From assembly GCA_963666285.1 (NCBI GenBank), contig OY762711.1: a stretch of DNA of 64,000 nucleotides. One strand, 5' to 3'. Positions 948 through 11,318 of this stretch are shown here, one piece after another. The first letter of the stretch is position 1. Every line of letters begins with the position of its first letter. The DNA is from Sedimentisphaerales bacterium (GTDB lineage: Bacteria > Planctomycetota > Phycisphaerae > Sedimentisphaerales > SM23-30). Under the pieces are notes generated by a model. It did not search any database, was not told the DNA's origin, and worked only from the letters and a program-made list of their open reading frames with translations. Made by a program: the position numbers and the translations under genes.

Positions 948-2441
948 TTATATATCACATACATAAATGTCACAAAAGTATTTATCTAACTCAGCTTCCA
1001 ACGCCAATGAAGGTTTGTTTTTTTTATGTAGGCTATATATTTCCTTTGATAGTGTAGTAACATAATCAAGCTGATGTGCCTTAGGTTGAACTATCGGTAT
1101 CTTTTTAATATAATTTGCTGAATTATTCGCACTGGGATTAATAGTTCTAATTAAACTGTTACATATCTCAGAATTAAAAAACGCAAGAAGATAAAATAAA
1201 TACTCTTCGTCATGAGGGAATATACCAACTATTGACTGATCAAAAAGCCTATTTTCAATTAATGCTCCAGTTATCTTTGATGAAGATACCATCGGAACAC
1301 CAACTCCATCCTTGAAATAATACTGTGAATTTTGAAATCTAGCTTTCTTGTCTTTTTTGTAAAACTCAACCGTTTCTTTCTGCCAATTCATAAACCAATT
1401 GGTTGGCTTATAATAACTATGGTTACCACCTTTCATGATTGGTACAAGATAGCCATCGCCTTCTACGCCAGCAAGAGGGACATCACTAGACATAAAAATA
1501 TTATTCTCATTTGCTAGTTCATATTTTTTTGCACCTCTTATATCCTTACTGATAACCTTCAAAAACATCTTATCATTACCTGAGTAAAAACCAGTAACGC
1601 AATCAGCAATATCAGCAATTTTTCTTTCTGACTTATTTATCATCAAAGTTAACTGGTCATCTTTAGAAATAAATAAAGCATGGTCAATATTATCTTTCAT
1701 ATCTTTTTGCAATATTTTCACATCAGCAATATTTTCACAATTCAATTGGTCTACAGTAGAGAAATTATTGTAAATAGAGATAATATTATTATCTCTTATA
1801 TACTTATCTGCGCACTTAACTAATTTGACAATACAAAGATTAGAGTATCCAAAATTTACATTTGGGAAAAAACTTGAAGGAAACAATGATATATTTACAA
1901 TTTTTGTGTTATCAAGTATGAACTTTCTTAATTTTGTATGCATATGCAAATTTAAAAATGTATCTGGAATAATAAATACTAAAACACCTTCATCTTTCAA
2001 TAGCTGAATTGCACGTTTCAAAAATAATGCATAGGTCTCTTTTACATAATAACCAGGATAATACTCTTTAAGTAAGTTACGCTTTTCATAATCCTGCCAT
2101 GCGCCATAAGGAGGATTAGCAATGATTCGATCATATAAACTTAAACTTGAAGAAAATAAATCACTATGTGTTTCAGTCAACGTATCTTTTTTCTCAACAT
2201 TAACAAAAGAATTCTCCCTAAACTTTTCATTTAATATCTGAATTGAGTCTGGATTAATATCAAAAGCATCTATGGTAATATCTTTATAATTCAATAAGGG
2301 ATCAATAAAAACCCCATCGCCTGCAGCTGGTTCTAGATAGTCCAAACCATCTTGCGGTTCTAATAAGTCAATCATATAATTTACTATGTAACTTGAATGA
2401 GTATAATAAGATTGAAATTTTTTATCAACACATACTACCAT
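948..2441 (-). CDS. Type II DNA amino-methyltransferase (probably N6-adenine, gamma class)
   Basis: Motif X YYT, motif I LEPAAGDGVF, motif IV IIANPPY, C-terminal TRD-like region; overlaps the upstream nuclease-like gene. Confidence 0.92.
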   Translation of the reverse strand: MVVCVDKKFQSYYTHSSYIVNYMIDLLEPQDGLDYLEPAAGDGVFIDPLLNYKDITIDAFDINPDSIQILNEKFRENSFVNVEKKDTLTETHSDLFSSSLSLYDRIIANPPYGAWQDYEKRNLLKEYYPGYYVKETYALFLKRAIQLLKDEGVLVFIIPDTFLNLHMHTKLRKFILDNTKIVNISLFPSSFFPNVNFGYSNLCIVKLVKCADKYIRDNNIISIYNNFSTVDQLNCENIADVKILQKDMKDNIDHALFISKDDQLTLMINKSERKIADIADCVTGFYSGNDKMFLKVISKDIRGAKKYELANENNIFMSSDVPLAGVEGDGYLVPIMKGGNHSYYKPTNWFMNWQKETVEFYKKDKKARFQNSQYYFKDGVGVPMVSSSKITGALIENRLFDQSIVGIFPHDEEYLFYLLAFFNSEICNSLIRTINPSANNSANYIKKIPIVQPKAHQLDYVTTLSKEIYSLHKKNKPSLALEAELDKYFCDIYVCDI

Positions 2442-3361
2442 ATCAAATACTTCTCCATGTCATTTCTTCTTAGATAATCATAAAAGTCAACAGACAAATC
2501 ATCTGCCCAACATATATTCTTTTCTATCCAATCATGAATATCAAAACCAGTATAATCTTTAATCTTATTATACGAATCTATCCCACAATAAGCCTCCCAA
2601 ATTCTTGAGTCTTTAAGAGTTTGGAAATAATGATTATTAAGATCTTCTTCAGACCTAACTAATAAAACACATTTGTAATTTGACTCTAAGTTCTCATATA
2701 TTGAAGCAACTAAAAGAAGCCTATTTGTGTTCCCTTTCTCATTCGACCCAAAACCACTTTTGAAATCTACATTATATCTAAAGCTCGCATCTTGAAAATG
2801 ACAATCCAGTTCTAATTTAATTTCACCTGATGTAACTAAAGACCATACTTTTCCATAATATCTAAGCAACTCTGCTTTTTGCTCCTCGGTTAAGTTAAGT
2901 GATTGAATATAATCACTAATTTCATCTGCCATAGCCTTTTTTACATCAGCAAATAAAGGAGGGATATATAAAGAAATATCGCTAAGTGGATATTCAAAAC
3001 ATAACTTACAGAATGGTTCCCACAATTCCCCGATCCTACGAGAAAATGTCATATACTCATATGGCCATACTGCATTTCTAAATTCTAACATAGTGACATA
3101 TGATGTATATGTAGCTATTAGCATACTCTTTAATATATCATGATTATCCCATGACTCTTTTCTTGCTTTTTGAAAAAGCGTACTTATAAGTTGATTTTTT
3201 GTCTCAATCACTGTCTTATTTATGGCAGTAGCTCGTTTTCTGTATTGAGATTCACCATAAATTTCTTTTATATTCTGTAAAGATTCTGTTGTTCTATCTC
3301 GAAAATATTCTAATAAATCATTCTTATTACCACACAAAGCTTTATTAATTTCTATTTCCAT
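2435..3361 (-). CDS. Putative type II restriction endonuclease (PD-(D/E)XK)
   Basis: 308 aa, translationally coupled to the MTase, AT-rich, RRIGELWE helix and ELD...VDFK candidate catalytic motif; RBS AAGGAG. Confidence 0.72.
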   Translation of the reverse strand: MEIEINKALCGNKNDLLEYFRDRTTESLQNIKEIYGESQYRKRATAINKTVIETKNQLISTLFQKARKESWDNHDILKSMLIATYTSYVTMLEFRNAVWPYEYMTFSRRIGELWEPFCKLCFEYPLSDISLYIPPLFADVKKAMADEISDYIQSLNLTEEQKAELLRYYGKVWSLVTSGEIKLELDCHFQDASFRYNVDFKSGFGSNEKGNTNRLLLVASIYENLESNYKCVLLVRSEEDLNNHYFQTLKDSRIWEAYCGIDSYNKIKDYTGFDIHDWIEKNICWADDLSVDFYDYLRRNDMEKYLIW

Positions 3362-3898: not shown

Positions 3899-4253
3899 CC
3901 CCCCCACCCCTAAAAGTCGCTAGGTGGGGTCTTCTTTCTTCGCATTAAATGCCTCACACAGATAGGATCAATCCTAGCATCAACAATATATGTTGTAGAA
4001 GCTTTCACATCATTTGTAATATTATCTAACCTTATTCCAGAACCATAATCAAACTGCAACCCAAAAGACACTTTTAAAAAAATAAAAAAGAAATAAAGTG
4101 AAAATTAATTATTTTTCTTAGTTTCATTGAAAATCTCCTTGCTATGTACACTAAATATACATTATTTCAACCGTTAAACATGTAAAATTGTATTGCTTCA
4201 GTTGGAATTGGACATTTCCTGAATTATTGTTAGTATAGTCTAGCAGAAAGGAA

Positions 4254-4577
4254 ATGTACATGGCAAAGCGTAAGAATTATTCAGCAGAAGAGAAGGTAAA
4301 GTTACTCAAAGAGCATTTGGTTGATAACGTTCCGGTGTCAGAGATATGCGAGCGAATCGGTCTAAATCCTAATGTATTTTACAATTGGCAGAAGCAGTTT
4401 TTTGAAAATGGAGCTGCGGCATTTACAAAACAGGCCAAGAGCCGAAAAGTTCCTTATGATAAACGATTAGAGCGTCAAAATGCACAACTTCAGGCAAAGA
4501 TAACTCAAAAGGATGAAGTAATTGCCGAGATTATGGAGTCACATATCAAGCTAAAAAAAAGTCTTGGCGAGGACTAA
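4254..4577 (+). CDS. IS3-family OrfA (HTH); A8G slippery run at 4553-4561 for -1 frameshift into OrfB
   Basis: RKNYSAEEKVKLL...VSEICERIGLNPNVFYNW HTH; the -1 frame is open from the A run into orfB (KKSWRGLNGSWAEPDVRDQVVDYV...MIKWLG). Confidence 0.92.
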   Translation: MYMAKRKNYSAEEKVKLLKEHLVDNVPVSEICERIGLNPNVFYNWQKQFFENGAAAFTKQAKSRKVPYDKRLERQNAQLQAKITQKDEVIAEIMESHIKLKKSLGED

Positions 4578-4666
4578 ATGGTTCCTGGGCTGAACCTGAT
4601 GTTCGTGATCAGGTAGTTGACTATGTAGGCTACTGGACCAACCGAACTGAAATTGTTGCCAAGGTC

Positions 4667-5467
4667 ATGATAAAGTGGCTGGGCATATCCCGCAGTAAAT
4701 ATTATAACTGGAAGAAGCGATACGGCATGGAAAACGAGCATAATGGTCTGATACCGAGAGATTTCTGGCTGACCGAAGCCGAGAGACAGACGATAATAGA
4801 TTATTTCCGCCGATATTCGAAAGAAGGTTATCGCAGATTGTGTTATATGATGATGGATGCCGATATTGTAGCAGTAAGTCCTTCCAGCGTATATCGGGTA
4901 TTGAAAGATGCCGGGTATATGGACAGGTGGAACCGTAAAGCCAGCAAGAAAGGCACCGGTTTTGTTCAGCCGATACAGGCTCATGACCATTGGCATATAG
5001 ACATATCTTACCTCAATATTTGCGGCACGTTTTACTACATGTGCAGTATTCTGGACGGCTACAGCCGTTATATTGTTCACTGGGAGATCCGTGAAGCAAT
5101 GAAAGAATACGATGTAGAGATAATTTTGCAGAAAGCCAGGGAGAAGTTCCCGGATGAAAACCCTAGGATTATCTCTGACAATGGACCGCAGTTTATATCG
5201 AAAGACTTCAAGGAATATATCAGGCTCAGCGGCATGACACATGTAAGAACCTCGCCGTATTATCCACAGAGTAATGGTAAGTTGGAAAGGTATCATAAAA
5301 CTATCAAAAGTACCTGTATTAGACCAAAAACGCCGTTATCTCTGGAAGATGGTCGGCGTCTGGTAACAGACTTTGTTGACCATTATAATAATAAACGGTT
5401 GCATAGTGCGATAGGTTATATTACTCCGATTGATAAGCTTGAGGGTAGAGCCGAGGCGATCCGATAA
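4667..5467 (+). pseudogene. IS3-family OrfB DDE transposase, last 22 aa displaced to 6917..6985 by the IS256 insertion
   Basis: WHIDISY, ILDGYSR, ISDNGPQF, SNGKLERYH rve motifs; removing IS256 gives GRAEAI-HAERDRKLEAARAARKQKRKSA*. Confidence 0.9.
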
Positions 5468-6909
5468 CGTATAATATTTTTCGCACAATTTTATTGGACG
5501 TGATAAAAGAAGTCCTTCATCCGGTCGATAGTAATGTAACGAACAAATTATTATTAACCAGAAGAAAGGACTTCAAATGAAACAGTTAGAGCAATCGACC
5601 GGAAATGACAAGAACTTGAATAATGTCATAAAAATTGATGAGGCACGGGTAAAGCATGAGCTTGGAGATCTAGTACGTACCACCGTTGAGGATACGTTGA
5701 ATACCATGCTTGATGCCGAGGCTGACCAGCTTTGTAATGCTGCACGATATGAGCGTAGCGAAGCTCGTAAAGATACCAGAGCAGGTTTCTATGATCGTAA
5801 GTTGCAAACTCAAGCCGGTGAAGTCAATTTGAAGATGCCCAAGTTGCGTAAGACCACATTCGAGACAGCCATAATTGAGCGTTATAAGCGTCGTGAATCA
5901 TCCGTAGAGGAATCTCTAATAGAAATGTATCTTGCAGGCGTTTCTGTTCGCAGGGTTGAAGATATCACTCAGACGTTATGGGGAACAAAGGTAAGTCCCG
6001 GCACAATCAGCAATCTCAACAAGAAGGTTTACAGTCAGATAGAACAATGGCGTAATCGAGAGCTTAAAGGCAATTACCCTTATGTTTACCTGGATGGGAT
6101 AGTTCTAAAAAGAAGCTGGGCTGGAGAGGTTCGCAATGTTTCAGTCCTGGTCGCAATAGCAGTCGATCAGGACGGTTACCGAGAGGTATTAGGCAGCTGG
6201 GAAGGTCCCAAAGAAGACAAGGAAGGATGGGGGCAATTTCTCAGGCATTTGAAATCCAGAGGGCTTAAAGATGTAAGGTTGTTTGTTACAGATAAGTGCA
6301 TGGGGCTGGTAGAGTCTCTTGAGCAATACTACCCAGACTCGCTATGGCAAAGATGTACAGTACATTGGTATCGTAATGTTTTTAGCAAAGTTCCACGTCA
6401 GAAGGTTCGTGAGGTAGCGGCTATGCTTAAAGCTATCCATGCTCAGGAAGACAAGAAAGCAGCAGAGGAAAAAGCCAGGCAGGTAATTGAAAAACTTCTC
6501 TCTATGAAATTGAAAGAAGCTGCCAAAGTTGTAGAAGAAGGTTACATGGAGACTATGAGCTATTATAACTTCCCTGATGAGCATTGGAGCAGACTGAGAA
6601 CCAATAATGGTCTGGAACGTATAATGAAAGAGATTCGGCGACGTACCCGAGTTGTTGGTAGTTTTCCAGACGGTCATAGTGCTTTGATGTTAGCCACTGC
6701 CCGGCTAAGACATATAGCAGGAACAAAATGGAGTACTAAAAGATATCTGAATATGGAGCATTTATACGATCTTGAGAAGGAGCAAAAAATGAATAAAAAA
6801 ACTGGCTAGCGACCGATAACTCGCCGCCCCCCTAGGGGGGCATCCAGAACCGGGAAAAGACCGGATGAAGGATACTCTAATAAATGTGCGAAAGATTCTT
6901 GACACTACC
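5463..6909 (+). mobile_element. IS256-family element, copy 2 (complete, 1447 bp)
   Basis: IRL gataacgtataatatttttcgcaca; IRR (rc) ggtagtgtcaagaatctttcgcaca; 8-bp TSD GGCGATCC at 5455-5462 and 6910-6917. Confidence 0.96.
5577..6809 (+). CDS. IS256-family (mutator-type) transposase
   Basis: YPYVYLDG, FVTD, WQRCTVHWYRN, RTNNGLERIMKEIRRRTRVVGSFP motifs. Confidence 0.96.
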   Translation: MKQLEQSTGNDKNLNNVIKIDEARVKHELGDLVRTTVEDTLNTMLDAEADQLCNAARYERSEARKDTRAGFYDRKLQTQAGEVNLKMPKLRKTTFETAIIERYKRRESSVEESLIEMYLAGVSVRRVEDITQTLWGTKVSPGTISNLNKKVYSQIEQWRNRELKGNYPYVYLDGIVLKRSWAGEVRNVSVLVAIAVDQDGYREVLGSWEGPKEDKEGWGQFLRHLKSRGLKDVRLFVTDKCMGLVESLEQYYPDSLWQRCTVHWYRNVFSKVPRQKVREVAAMLKAIHAQEDKKAAEEKARQVIEKLLSMKLKEAAKVVEEGYMETMSYYNFPDEHWSRLRTNNGLERIMKEIRRRTRVVGSFPDGHSALMLATARLRHIAGTKWSTKRYLNMEHLYDLEKEQKMNKKTG

Positions 6910-6981
6910 GGCGATCCATGCCGAACGTGACAGGAAGCTGGAAGCAGCCAGAGCAGCCCGAAAACAGAAACGGAAATCAGC

Positions 6982-7010
6982 TTGACAGTTTGAATGATGT
7001 AATTGATAAT
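6982..7010 (+). promoter_or_regulatory. Near-consensus sigma70 promoter inside the IS3 3' tail
   Basis: TTGACA (6982-6987), 17 bp, GATAAT (7005-7010); the -35 overlaps the native orfB stop. Confidence 0.65.
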
Positions 7011-7016
7011 GCATTT

Positions 7017-7123
7017 GTCCGGCGAAACGGAAGCAGGCTCTGCAGAGGTGCAACCTGCCAGGGATAGCCGGAACTGAGCGACGAATTGTCGTTATGGTGG
7101 TGGTTGCACGCTGCCACCATTTT
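7017..7123 (+). ncRNA. Candidate IS-encoded structured small RNA
   Basis: Starts at the expected TSS; stems tccggc/gccgga, gcagg/cctgc, gcgac/gtcgt; ends in a 10-bp hairpin plus T4; no long ORF. Confidence 0.45.
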
Positions 7124-7277
7124 CAAAGATCATTCAGAGCTTTGTAATGCCTTAAAAAACCTGTAAAATAAAGCCTTGCCGAAGGCAAAACATGTTGTTA
7201 AAATCAAGACGTAAAGTCTATTAAATTGGAAACGGATTTGTCCAGTTCACGCTGAACCAGTACAAAATAGTTTAATA

Positions 7278-10200
7278 TTATTCAAGCCAGCTATCTACAA
7301 ATATCAGGAAATCTTCCATATCGGTCGAACCTGAAACATTGAAGTCTGTCTGGCCACAGTAATATATACTTGCACAATCAGAACATAGCCACATGGAAGC
7401 TATTGCCCCTAAGTCCAAGATATTAATATTGCTATCCCCATTAATATCTGGTGAGAATGAATCAGGTTCCCAAATAAATCTCGGATAGTAATTTTCGGTA
7501 AGCTTCCACCCCTCGCCATCACCATCAGTATCGCCAATATCCCAACCGGCAAAGGTAGAAGCATCCATCATTTCGGCTGTGTTCTTGCCAACTGCGCCAT
7601 AGTTATCATCTCCAGATAATCCTATACCTGAAACCTCAACATCCCAGAAACAATCAGAAATATTTGCTTCAGTTGTTTCCAATACACCAATATCACCTAC
7701 TATACTAATTGAGCTTGTACCAGCACTGCTGGAAACATAGTTATAACCAACCAAACCACCTACATGAATATACTCTGGAGCCCCGGTTTTAGTAGCTGTT
7801 ACCCGGCAACCAGAAAAACAGCCTAAGATTCGACTATCTCTATTATAACCTACCAAGCCACCAATATAATCATAACCTTTTATATAACCCAAAGCATAAC
7901 AACAAATAATGCTACCGTCATAATTTCTTCCTACTAGGCCACCTATTTTTTCATCTCCTGTCACAGAGCCAGTGGAGAAACTATTACTGATAGCTCCACT
8001 GTTTACCCCAACTAGGCCGCCAGAATCATCGCCGATAGCTGTTACTGAACCTATGGCATAACAGCTACTGACAATACTATCATGATCATTATATCCTACT
8101 AAGCCGCCTAAACAACTTTCTCCAGTAACTGAGCCAGTAGCATAACAAAGATTAACACTACCAATATTTTGACCTACTAGGCCGCCAGTGTACCACCCCT
8201 CACCAGTTATACTACCAGAGGCATGACAGTTGCTTATTTCTCCATTATTACATCCCACCAAGCCGCCGACATGACCACCAGTCCCTGTAACTGAGCCGGT
8301 GGCATAACAAAGATTAACACTACCAATATTTTGACCTACTAGGCCGCCAGTGTACCACCCCTCACCAGTTATACTACCAGAGGCATGACAGTTGCTTATT
8401 TCTCCATTATTACATCCCACCAAGCCGCCGACATGACCACCAGTCCCTGTAACTGAGCCGGTGGCATAACAGTTACTAATACTAGCAACAATAAGATCAT
8501 ATACACTGACGTTTCCTACCAGACCACCTGCGACACCTCCACCTCCGGTTACTTGGCCGGTAGCATAACTGTCAGTAATGCTTACAACATTGTTGGCACC
8601 ACAACTACAATCTCCAGCCAAGCCACCTGCGCTATATCCGGTTACTTGGCCGGTAGCATAACAATTACTAATACTAAAAACACTGCTGCTTTCATTTATA
8701 AAACAACCTCCAACCAGACCGCCAGTATAAGATCCGGTTACTTGGCCAGTAGCATAACAGCTACCAATACTAATAACACCACTTTCATTATATATACGAC
8801 AATATCCAACAAGACCACCTGCGACACCTCCGGTTACTTGGCCGGTAGCATAACAATTACTAATAATAACACTGCTGTTGTATCTTGTATAACAATATCC
8901 AACTAAGCCACCTGTATCATTATCTCCTGAAATCAATTCCGTGGCATAGCAGTTACTAATGCTTACAGCACTTCTGTCACTATTTGTACAACAATATCCA
9001 ACCAGGCCACCTGTACCATTATCTCCTGAAATCAATCCGGTGGCATAGCAGTTACTAATGCTTACAGTATTACTGTCACCTTTTGCACAACAATATCCAA
9101 CCAAGCCGCCTGCATAACAGCCAGAGCATGTAATATCAATATTTTCTAATCCCAGATTTCTAATAATGGCGGTTTTCTCTATATAGCCAAATAAACCACA
9201 ATAATCCTGACCATCAATTTTTAGGTTGCTTATCTTATGGAAATTCCCATCAAATAAGCCAGAAAACTCTACACCATAAAAATAACTGCCATCTTTCGTA
9301 TTTGGCGATATAACAGCCGAATCAAAAATATAGCCATCCATATCAATATCTTGCATAAGAATAAAATGACTATTATAGAGTTCAGGTAAATTGTGCAATG
9401 CACAAAGCTGCTGCGATGTTGATATCTGGAATGGGTCTTCTGCTGTCCCATCGTTGTTACTTGCATATCCGCTTATCTCAAAATAATAAGCAAGGTTATT
9501 CGGATCATTACTTGCTATGATTACCCGGTCCTGATAAAATCCAAAATCGTCAGTACCTATATCCAGAGTAACATCAAAGGTTGTATAGCCACCAGGAGCA
9601 ACGACACTATCTGGCAAATAGGAAATACTAAACTCAGAATCAGAGGCAAGCTGAACTGAAACCTCTAATGGAATATTACCATCATTTTTAATTACAAATT
9701 CTTTTGTAATTATACCATTGAATGTTGAGAAATCAGTATTATCATATACTGATGGAGTATCATCTTTATTTGCAATAACCTGATCATTACCCAATACACT
9801 TATTTTTGCTTTTGCATCAACATAAAAATCTATATTATACAAATTTGCAGTATTATAACCGGAACTCATCCCTAGAGATATTGCCTGATCCTGGGCCTCA
9901 ATCGAACCTTGATCTTCAATATAAACATAATAATTTCTATTTCCTGGTACTTGGGAAAATGAATATATACCGTTATTGTCCGATGTCACAGTGTCAATAA
10001 CTTCAAATTGATCTGTTCCAATAATTTTATTACCAATATTTATAGTGACACCTCCTGCAGGAGTACCTTCCAAATCATAAATTCTGCCACTAACTATTTC
10101 CCCTGTTCCTATGTGGTAGATATTATAAACACATTTATGCACAATATTACTTGCATACAAGTCTGTATATATATTTGGAAGATTATACCATAGGTTATAT

Positions 10201-11318
10201 AAGCCGGTCCAGCCCATATTCAGATGATATAAATCTGTTGAATTATCTATACCATATCCATCAGCCACAATTGCATGCCCACCATCATTCCCATCAATAC
10301 CAAGCATAACTGGATATGTCGCAAATAGATTAGATATTAATATTTTATCTAAGTTTGCTTTGTCAATACCATTTTGATTTCCTCCTTTAATAGCATTTGA
10401 ATATTTAAAAACATCTAAGAATGCATCCCCTGCATTTAATGTGTTCGCACCAGACCCACTAGCAGTATACGACATTCCCACAGAAACACCTGCATCATAG
10501 CATAAAGCACCAATTGCTTTTCTAGAAGTCTCAGATGTGTAATAATTAGGCGTTGTTTGCATTGCTCCCCAATTATACTGCCCTCCAACACCGTCTCCAC
10601 CTATTGTAGTTCTAGTTTCAGTTATACCATCAATTGTGATACTTGAGGATACCGCACCAATACTATCTATTGGATACTGGTGGTAATACATAATTTGAGC
10701 CATGGCTGTAGCAACGCATCCACAAGGATAATTATTAGGTGTATAATAATTGTAACAGAGGTTGCCGCCAGCCTCAGTCTGATCCCATTCTGTTTTCAAT
10801 AGCGGCTCTACCAGAATTTCGTCCATATCAGAATCTGTAGTTCCATTAGATGCTTTTGAAACAATTATAGCTGAAATGCTTTTCCACTTACTCTGCATCT
10901 CGGCAAAGTATTGTTCATTTTCAGTAGAAGATTTACTCTTGACTCTGTTTCTTACATAACTGGTTCTTTGCCTTAAATCTTTATCAGCCAAAGAAGCAAG
11001 CGGATTATCTGTTGTTAGATCATATTTTCCATTTTCAGAGAAAGCAATAATAGGCTCGACCTCATCATCAGCTGAGACAATAATAAAACCACTAGGAGCA
11101 AGATTGACAATATGATATATAGGAACTTTATCTTTGCCGGAGTATGTGTCAATGGTGTCGATACTAGTTCCAAGTTCAACACCAAGATGGGTATTTCCCT
11201 GGCTCAACCAACCTTGTACCATCTGCTTGGCATCGCTGGCAGACATAACAGCAGCATTAACAACATTGGATACAAATGAGCACACAACCACAATAATAAT
11301 TAAAGTGTTTTTCATCAT
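7278..11318 (-). CDS. Secreted C10 (streptopain-like) cysteine peptidase with Spi-like prodomain, Ig-like domains, GLUG repeats and C-terminal dockerin-like domain
   Basis: Signal peptide; WDQ...PCGCVATAMAQIMYY, GGHAIVADGY, YHLNMGW; many GGLVG repeats; DINGDSNINILDL...WL and DFNVSGSTDMEDF...WLE. Confidence 0.9.
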   Translation of the reverse strand: MMKNTLIIIVVVCSFVSNVVNAAVMSASDAKQMVQGWLSQGNTHLGVELGTSIDTIDTYSGKDKVPIYHIVNLAPSGFIIVSADDEVEPIIAFSENGKYDLTTDNPLASLADKDLRQRTSYVRNRVKSKSSTENEQYFAEMQSKWKSISAIIVSKASNGTTDSDMDEILVEPLLKTEWDQTEAGGNLCYNYYTPNNYPCGCVATAMAQIMYYHQYPIDSIGAVSSSITIDGITETRTTIGGDGVGGQYNWGAMQTTPNYYTSETSRKAIGALCYDAGVSVGMSYTASGSGANTLNAGDAFLDVFKYSNAIKGGNQNGIDKANLDKILISNLFATYPVMLGIDGNDGGHAIVADGYGIDNSTDLYHLNMGWTGLYNLWYNLPNIYTDLYASNIVHKCVYNIYHIGTGEIVSGRIYDLEGTPAGGVTINIGNKIIGTDQFEVIDTVTSDNNGIYSFSQVPGNRNYYVYIEDQGSIEAQDQAISLGMSSGYNTANLYNIDFYVDAKAKISVLGNDQVIANKDDTPSVYDNTDFSTFNGIITKEFVIKNDGNIPLEVSVQLASDSEFSISYLPDSVVAPGGYTTFDVTLDIGTDDFGFYQDRVIIASNDPNNLAYYFEISGYASNNDGTAEDPFQISTSQQLCALHNLPELYNSHFILMQDIDMDGYIFDSAVISPNTKDGSYFYGVEFSGLFDGNFHKISNLKIDGQDYCGLFGYIEKTAIIRNLGLENIDITCSGCYAGGLVGYCCAKGDSNTVSISNCYATGLISGDNGTGGLVGYCCTNSDRSAVSISNCYATELISGDNDTGGLVGYCYTRYNSSVIISNCYATGQVTGGVAGGLVGYCRIYNESGVISIGSCYATGQVTGSYTGGLVGGCFINESSSVFSISNCYATGQVTGYSAGGLAGDCSCGANNVVSITDSYATGQVTGGGGVAGGLVGNVSVYDLIVASISNCYATGSVTGTGGHVGGLVGCNNGEISNCHASGSITGEGWYTGGLVGQNIGSVNLCYATGSVTGTGGHVGGLVGCNNGEISNCHASGSITGEGWYTGGLVGQNIGSVNLCYATGSVTGESCLGGLVGYNDHDSIVSSCYAIGSVTAIGDDSGGLVGVNSGAISNSFSTGSVTGDEKIGGLVGRNYDGSIICCYALGYIKGYDYIGGLVGYNRDSRILGCFSGCRVTATKTGAPEYIHVGGLVGYNYVSSSAGTSSISIVGDIGVLETTEANISDCFWDVEVSGIGLSGDDNYGAVGKNTAEMMDASTFAGWDIGDTDGDGEGWKLTENYYPRFIWEPDSFSPDINGDSNINILDLGAIASMWLCSDCASIYYCGQTDFNVSGSTDMEDFLIFVDSWLE
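8141..8471. repeat. 162-bp (54-aa) in-frame tandem duplication in the GLUG region
   Basis: cataac at 8141, 8303 and 8465 (period 162); the two units look identical. Confidence 0.93.

Follow-up and report, generated by a model that had tools for sequence, protein, structure and literature searches.

A promoter-linked, covarying predicted RNA core and a separable partner site in the tail of an IS3-family element and in other mobile elements: a candidate signal for single-strand initiation

What is carried in the long 3' tail of an IS3-family element, between the stop codon of its transposase gene and its right end, and what could it do for the element? The question is raised by an element in the window, the 64,000-nucleotide stretch of DNA analyzed here, for which the original prediction proposed a structured non-coding RNA with its own promoter. 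The element is made up of the following parts.

4189..7264 (+): IS3-family element, native length 1621 bp, interrupted in the window copy by an IS256-family element
4189..4219 (+): left inverted repeat of the IS3 element
4254..4577 (+): orfA (107 aa)
4667..5462 (+): 5' part of orfB (DDE transposase; NF033516, 170.6 bits, cut-off 160)
5463..6909 (+): IS256-family element inside orfB (8-bp duplication GGCGATCC; transposase at 5577-6809)
6918..6985 (+): 3' part of orfB with its native stop, placed by comparison with an uninterrupted copy (L001)
7234..7264 (+): right inverted repeat (IRR) of the IS3 element

The element has the TG...CA terminal inverted repeats (31 bp, imperfect) and the 3-4 bp target duplication of the IS3 family, here AAAT at 4185-4188 and 7265-7268. 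Its OrfB scored above the curated NCBIfam cut-off, orfA and orfB lie in different frames, and OrfA and OrfB are its only coding content. The genome holds four identical copies including that in the window, the other three being uninterrupted (1621 bp), and each is flanked by a 4-bp duplication. The native orfB stop was confirmed at 6983-6985, leaving a tail of 279 bp to the end of the IRR at 7264. Two further identical copies of the IS256 element are present in the genome, one of which enters the start of the window in the opposite orientation. Elsewhere in the window, the minus strand encodes an adenine methyltransferase (497 aa) and an adjoining 308-aa ORF without a Pfam or NCBIfam match (948-3361), likely a type II restriction-modification pair, and a 1346-aa protein with I69 inhibitor, peptidase C10 and GLUG repeats (7278-11318), the gene for which contains an internal 162-bp direct repeat (98% identity).

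To define the tail, relatives were gathered by a DNA search of 41 related genomes and a protein search of genome contigs (80 of 82 loci kept), and by a pattern scan of metagenomes that yielded at least 120 loci. Together the searches gave at least 139 distinct motif-bearing sequences; the invariance of AAACRGA and AGGGATA in the scan set is by construction, since the scan pattern fixed both. The tail begins with these features.

6982..7010 (+): sigma-70-type promoter, -35 at 6982-6987, -10 at 7005-7010, predicted start at about 7017
7017..7072 (+): predicted RNA core with helices P1 (7018-23/7067-72), P2 (7033-37/7054-58) and P3 (7041-44/7049-52)
7025-32 (+): AAACGGAA stretch within the predicted RNA core
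7045..7048 (+): P3 loop GAGG, with partner CCT at 7160-7162
7060..7065 (+): AGGGAU segment, with partner ATGCCT and a central purine-purine mismatch

The promoter TTGACA-17-GATAAT was present as proposed and matched the consensus at 11 of 12 positions. A -10-like hexamer was found at one fixed distance, 20 nt before AAAC, in the upstream regions of 70 of 133 relatives, and a -35-like hexamer at 42-43 nt in 61 of the 133. Analysis of the core in 45 sequences revealed that 95.3% of 943 cells were paired and that 10 of 21 pairs had two-sided changes; slid partners gave 26-45%, and none of 500 shuffles reached the observed value in a test that relatedness inflates. Mutual information in 107 sequences ranked P3, P1, P2 and the base of the arm helix highest. 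Both P1 (TCCGGC/GCCGGA) and P2 (GCAGG/CCTGC) had been drawn correctly and covary. The ctc-tgca-gag hairpin drawn within them was not conserved, and covariation favored TGCA-GAGG-TGCA (P3) in its place (top mutual-information pair, z 21.9). The fold had a stability z of -2.87, with 2 of 200 shuffles as stable. The Rfam 15 covariance models gave no match over the motif in window positions 5000-9000, in 20 homolog loci or in 7 plasmid and phage loci. Three RNA runs were covered in small shares and as contigs; one contig spans 7020-7162, although such contigs give neither start nor strand and it was not counted as evidence.

Downstream of the core, a second conserved segment was identified that lies outside the stretch first singled out, which had ended at 7123: both the site at 7147-7162 and the mini-hairpin at 7176-7188 are beyond it. 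As judged from the alignments, the predicted fold therefore departs from the earlier drawing and extends past that point. The downstream features are listed here.

7073..7090 (+): arm complementary to 7125-7146, weakened in the window copy
7094..7120 (+): apical hairpin, a possible RNA 3' end, no general terminator
7125..7163 (+): putative docking site, as single-stranded DNA; arm partner at 7125-7146 and ATGCCT at 7147-7152, followed in its 3' part by an A-tract at 7154-7159 and CCT at 7160-7162
7176..7188 (+): TTGCC-GAA-GGCAA mini-hairpin (CCGAAGG)

In relatives the site consists of ATGCCT, a spacer of 1-3 nt, an A-tract and a variable word of a few letters, and this word tracks the P3 loop (GGGA with TCCC, GAGG with CCTC, GAAG with CTTC, GACA with TGTC, GGAG with CTCC). 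Loop and site formed 3.49 of 4 Watson-Crick pairs compared with 2.49 ± 0.09 after shuffling (89 sequences; 0 of 10000 shuffles as high), and 3.04 compared with 1.88 when 25 distinct types were counted. The AGGGAU segment pairs with ATGCCT at 5 of 6 positions. This second helix was invariant in the pattern-derived alignment; among loci found by other routes, compensatory changes were present at two positions (AGGAGU/ACGCCT in L300 and AGCAAU/ATGGCT in L329). Of 137 cis pairs, 127 were of the common type and 8 of the other 10 varied at the central purine-purine mismatch alone, the remaining two having a broken pair in one case and an additional G-U in the other. Compensatory changes in both helices thus indicate that the loop and AGGGAU are each predicted to pair with the site. 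In 56 of 104 relatives (43 of them with CCGAAGG) a cGNAg hairpin follows the site on its 3' side within 70 nt, and none was found in 48; the controls gave 0 of 68 upstream regions and 1.4% of shuffles, with kin that are not independent.

The segment between core and site was more variable. The gcgac/gtcgt hairpin proposed after P1 was not conserved, and most of the 29 relatives chosen for folding formed a long interrupted stem there with a downstream segment. The 5' arm of this long stem pairs in relatives with the stretch just 5' of the conserved site, and the domain is deleted in some. Across 97 loci, cognate arm-partner duplexes had a mean of -21.2 kcal/mol compared with -12.8 for non-cognate ones. 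In the window copy 64 of 1000 shuffles paired equally well, compared with 0 of 1000 for L006. The terminator-like stem at 7094-7103/7111-7120 was present, but it was not called as a terminator by the scanner, and at least 4 T in the next 8 nt followed the apical hairpin in 28 of 97 relatives, so that an intrinsic terminator is not a conserved feature. Because the hairpin before the cis site is no consistent terminator, transcription in the IS may run on through the site, and the transcript may then fold back on its own sequence. The pseudoknot drawn between 7048-7055 and 7102-7109 (GTGCAACC/GGTTGCAC) can be formed by the window copy, but a pairing of at least 7 nt was found in 1 of 88 relatives, the window copy itself, and it is a chance match.

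We also examined which elements carry the module. When covariance models were run on other genomes, the motif was detected in 5 of 150 from the phylum of the window, in 10 of 150 others from that of an Acidobacteria locus, and in 1 of 151 for both of two additional phyla. In a quick tree, 37 of 47 OrfB proteins carried the module and 10 did not; the sample took proteins for which a right end or the motif was visible, left out near-duplicate loci and was enriched for carriers. The label changed twice on this tree compared with 9.3 times when shuffled. The 10 related IS3 elements without the module argue that it is not required, and it is common in this IS3 group. This IS3 orfB lay directly upstream in 43 of 121 pattern loci among the matches listed, and 37 of the rest had less than 400 nt of upstream sequence. 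A Pfam scan of upstream ORFs covered 40 of 112 candidates and identified four IS110 transposases, one IS240-type DDE protein, two AAA_25, one AAA_22 and one DUF1670; the rest were further integrase-core proteins, housekeeping genes or without a match. Carriers found later included IS110 elements, another IS3 subgroup, a plasmid with a MOBP relaxase, and integrase/Mu elements with AAA_22 and with or without AAA_25. The proposal of a non-coding RNA in an IS3 tail was therefore upheld in that a promoter-linked, covarying candidate without an Rfam match is present, but the module is not specific to IS3, since it also follows IS110, Mu-like/AAA and plasmid genes.

Several carriers had features of their own. 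In L308, L309, L307, L192 and L330 an integrase/Mu-type transposase is accompanied by an AAA_22 (ExeA-like) ATPase, with the RNA at the end; one of these elements has an extra AAA_25 gene, and the element type is little described. The IS110 carriers L118, L167, L170 and L190 have on their 5' side a structured, conserved non-coding stretch about 220 nt long, which may be their bridge RNA, and a -35 box near the right end; a second RNA candidate lies at their 3' end. In three MITE-like derivatives (L106, L110 and L010) a left repeat or an orfA stub is fused to the promoter and the whole module is kept. A widespread soil remnant (L123, L147, L197, L215, L227 and L231) has lost the arm and the hairpin and keeps core, site, hairpin and IRR; several soil loci with RNA and IRR were rejected as MITEs on account of having no detectable left repeat and were treated as remnants. 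Directly upstream of the RNA on a relaxase-bearing contig (L104:804-1541, +) a 241-aa protein family is encoded, which fell into unnamed clusters in the Atlas with a weak structural likeness to reverse-transcriptase palms (TM 0.55-0.58), and which could be a new primase or Rep-like protein. Two Microviridae genomes carry a reduced motif on the coding strand, one of them between the Rep and capsid genes. L302 scored 44.7 bits with a core model trained on it and 22.2 bits with an earlier model that did not include it, and L303 scored 23.6 bits, its match being limited to P2-P3. Downstream, an A-tract and then CCT are present in both, and no partner for the second helix was found in L302. In IMG/VR the first pattern gave two loci, one of them real; a looser pattern gave 29 loci, with none of the 27 new ones convincing, and three scans with a phage-type pattern gave none.

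Core and site were also found apart. Of 150 core matches, 31 had no downstream site and were mostly truncated or interrupted; in two of these, L217 and plasmid NZ_CP120686, a site was found upstream on the opposite strand. NZ_CP120686 (L304) and NZ_CP120685 (L300) are repL plasmids of the same Tunicatimonas strain whose RepL proteins are 34% identical. In each, the RNA core follows just after repL and is itself followed by a terminator-like stem, two site copies in a near-perfect inverted duplication flank repL, and no site lies downstream of the RNA; IS copies have one site each. Loop and site match across strands in both plasmids, and in NZ_CP120685, where GCCCGAAGGGC lies directly 3' of the site, both helices have changed in step across strands (GAAG with CTT; AGGAGU with ACGCCT). 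L300 also has an AT-rich region with repeated ACAACACT words upstream of repL and between the inverted sites (1790-2000), likely RepL iterons. None of eight other repL plasmids carried the module (best score 15 bits, no match to the core model), and a general link to repL was rejected. On a 59-kb contig with a TrwC relaxase, the RNA has a site in cis, and a solo site lies at a distance of 19 kb. The solo site is accompanied by a CCGAAGG hairpin and forms nine perfect pairs with the arm, which it matches better than the cis site does. In the window's genome the site motif has a background of 0.002 per 150 nt on each strand; six loose matches lay outside IS copies there, none with the hairpin. 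Shuffled arms paired equally well in 0 of 1000 cases for NZ_CP120686, 2 of 1000 for the solo site, 66 of 1000 for L217 and 429 of 1000 for NZ_CP120685, so that predicted arm pairing supports two of the four separated-site cases. There are three opposite-strand loci among the matches listed, two of them from one strain. An opposite-strand site cannot share a transcript or a DNA strand with the core, and at these loci the core must therefore act through RNA. Taken together, the sequence comparisons support well an RNA-plus-site family with a separable site, and the partner would most simply be single-stranded DNA.

We propose, at slightly below an even chance, that the module serves RNA-dependent single-strand initiation and primes the second strand of the displaced IS circle. 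In copy-out transposition, as outlined in 10.1101/2023.06.07.543989, an end of the element attacks its own strand at the opposite end, and the 3'-OH released in this way serves as primer for copying; the same source assigns circular intermediates to IS3, IS21, IS110, IS256, ISL3 and IS1202. Under our proposal, transcription of the double-stranded donor from this promoter would give an RNA of some 105-145 nt, and copy-out transposition would displace a single-stranded IS circle, which we infer needs separate priming. If the right end is the donor, the circularized strand would be the top strand, which bears the site. The RNA would grip the site through loop/CCT, AGGGAU/ATGCCT and the variable arm helix, and the second strand would start either from the processed 3' end of the RNA or from a primase recruited at the mini-hairpin, giving a double-stranded circle that could integrate. 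In the plasmids, the inverted pair of sites would prime two outward strands, each primer pointing away from repL. Most carriers pass through single-stranded DNA or need priming of their own. The priming reading is weakened by the fact that an incoming phage or transferred strand holds no RNA yet. A wider version, which we regard as plausible and a little less probable, is that the module represents a class of mobile-element RNA that docks in a pseudoknot-like manner on a single-stranded DNA origin, whether in cis or in trans, and stands in for a protein primase; with the same reserve, one portable module would then serve copy-out ISs, plasmid origins, conjugative elements and ssDNA phages.

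It is unlikely that the partner is RNA instead, whether in a double pseudoknot in cis, through binding to site-bearing transcripts as a control on copy number or transposition, or through titration of a host protein. Read-through would indeed give a compact RNA-only fold, and one plasmid site lies upstream of repL on the repL coding strand; a DNA partner is the better fit, however, to the inverted duplication that flanks repL, to the solo site and to a mini-hairpin of DNA type. No complementarity to the RNA was found in the 5' leader of the element (-37.7 compared with -42.7 ± 5.3 kcal/mol for shuffled sequences), and an antisense role against the transposase leader was rejected, the leader being no better than shuffled.

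Also unlikely is a reading of the whole motif as folded single-stranded DNA, an sso or ssi read by host primase or RNA polymerase, with a secondary role for the promoter. DNA could form the same pairs at the majority of loci, where core and site are in cis, the phages carry their copies on the coding strand, the mini-hairpin is a motif of DNA type, and RNA and ssDNA motifs are described as hard to distinguish computationally (PMC5737381). This reading does not account for the promoter at a fixed distance. Nor can a single DNA strand contain the two halves of L217, or the opposite-strand sites of L300 and L304 together with their cores, although the halves covary.

We consider it improbable that the RNA is a ribozyme which cleaves or nicks the DNA or RNA strand on which it docks, perhaps at the beginning or end of copying of the rolling-circle type. 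Its unpaired residues are nearly invariant, it would have two short substrate helices, and one of these keeps a purine-purine mismatch, a combination reminiscent of the way in which catalytic RNAs recognize substrates. RepL, moreover, is a small HTH protein (PMC5703833). Against this reading, no Rfam ribozyme matched, IS3 and IS110 have cutting enzymes of their own, and the invariance of AAACRGA/AGGGATA results mostly from the search pattern.

That the RNA guides or assists the transposase in the manner of the IS110 bridge RNA is very improbable. It adjoins the right end and is kept in the MITE-like L106, L110 and L010, but the enzymes found with it are unrelated to one another (DDE, DEDD, RepL, phage Rep), a conserved 5' non-coding region exists separately in the IS110 carriers, and the targeting role suggested in the original prediction found no support at the four insertion sites of the window's IS3 element, which share nothing with the RNA (longest matches 5-8 nt). 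A peptide from ATG-CCT was rejected by eye on stop positions that differ among relatives, and likenesses to a CsrA sponge, SRP, SAM and cobalamin RNAs, and to twister, pistol, glmS and HDV ribozymes, had no support from Rfam.

Even if priming proved to be the wrong reading, what was identified is a covarying RNA-plus-site module, absent from Rfam and from the literature searched, that is common to IS3, IS110 and Mu-like elements, plasmids and microviruses. The full-text search returned no description of the motif; the supplementary tables of PMC5737381 and PMC8040213, ISfinder and subscription journals lay outside its scope and could list it under a different name. If priming is right, copy-out transposition would have a start signal for its replication step that is made of RNA and encoded by the element, and an IS would for the first time be seen to supply the means by which the displaced IS3 circle acquires its second strand. 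It would also explain the replication of small plasmids whose sole annotated Rep is an HTH protein. The step would be testable with a 170-bp module and ready-made compensatory mutants, and a compact RNA that binds a defined ssDNA site would offer three changeable helices.

The module can be set against several known systems. IS110 and IS1111 bridge and seek RNAs are structured, IS-encoded RNAs that pair with DNA; unlike them, the module has no programmable target loops, with no loops complementary to target and donor at the four insertion sites, and its transposases are unrelated. ColE1 RNA II is an RNA polymerase transcript that serves as a primer of DNA synthesis. A transcript of RNA polymerase also starts DNA synthesis in Inc18 plasmids, as noted in PMC5703833. 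Both hybridize in cis to their own template, whereas the RNA of the module would use short, interrupted helices to pair with a distant strand or with the non-template one. As with ARRPOF, GEBRO and PAGEV, a structured motif is linked to plasmid replication and may be RNA or ssDNA; those motifs are given as 223-349 nt in other hosts (PMC5737381), and the module had no Rfam match. Like ssoA and Frpo, the module is a non-coding signal on ssDNA intermediates of mobile elements. Its site loosely resembles the TTTATGCCGAGAAAA stretch in L293, which we take to be RS-B-like. Homology to the ssoA of pSN2-type repL plasmids was not found, the best of the eight plasmids giving the 15 bits noted above and no core-model match. 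In the ssoA and Frpo systems, as presented in PMC5703833 and PMC7690428, RNA polymerase primes on folded ssDNA, whereas the module's promoter reads the double-stranded element.

The plasmid layout parallels that of RSF1010 (IncQ), where replication is described as starting at two inverted 40-nt ssi sites exposed by a helicase (PMC8567376) and ssiA as holding a CCGAAGG mini-hairpin (PMC13037366). L300 and L304 likewise have an inverted, opposite-strand pair of sites at their replication region, with repL as the presumed origin; a CCGAAGG mini-hairpin follows the site in 43 of the 104 relatives noted above, and AAA_25 helicase genes lie beside some carriers of the module. No RepB'-type primase was present among the annotated genes of NZ_CP120686 and NZ_CP120685, whose annotation is incomplete, or in the IS3 element. 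In contrast to RSF1010, where the ssi sites are read by the protein primase RepB', the site of the module covaries with a separately promoted RNA, and the module sits in IS elements.
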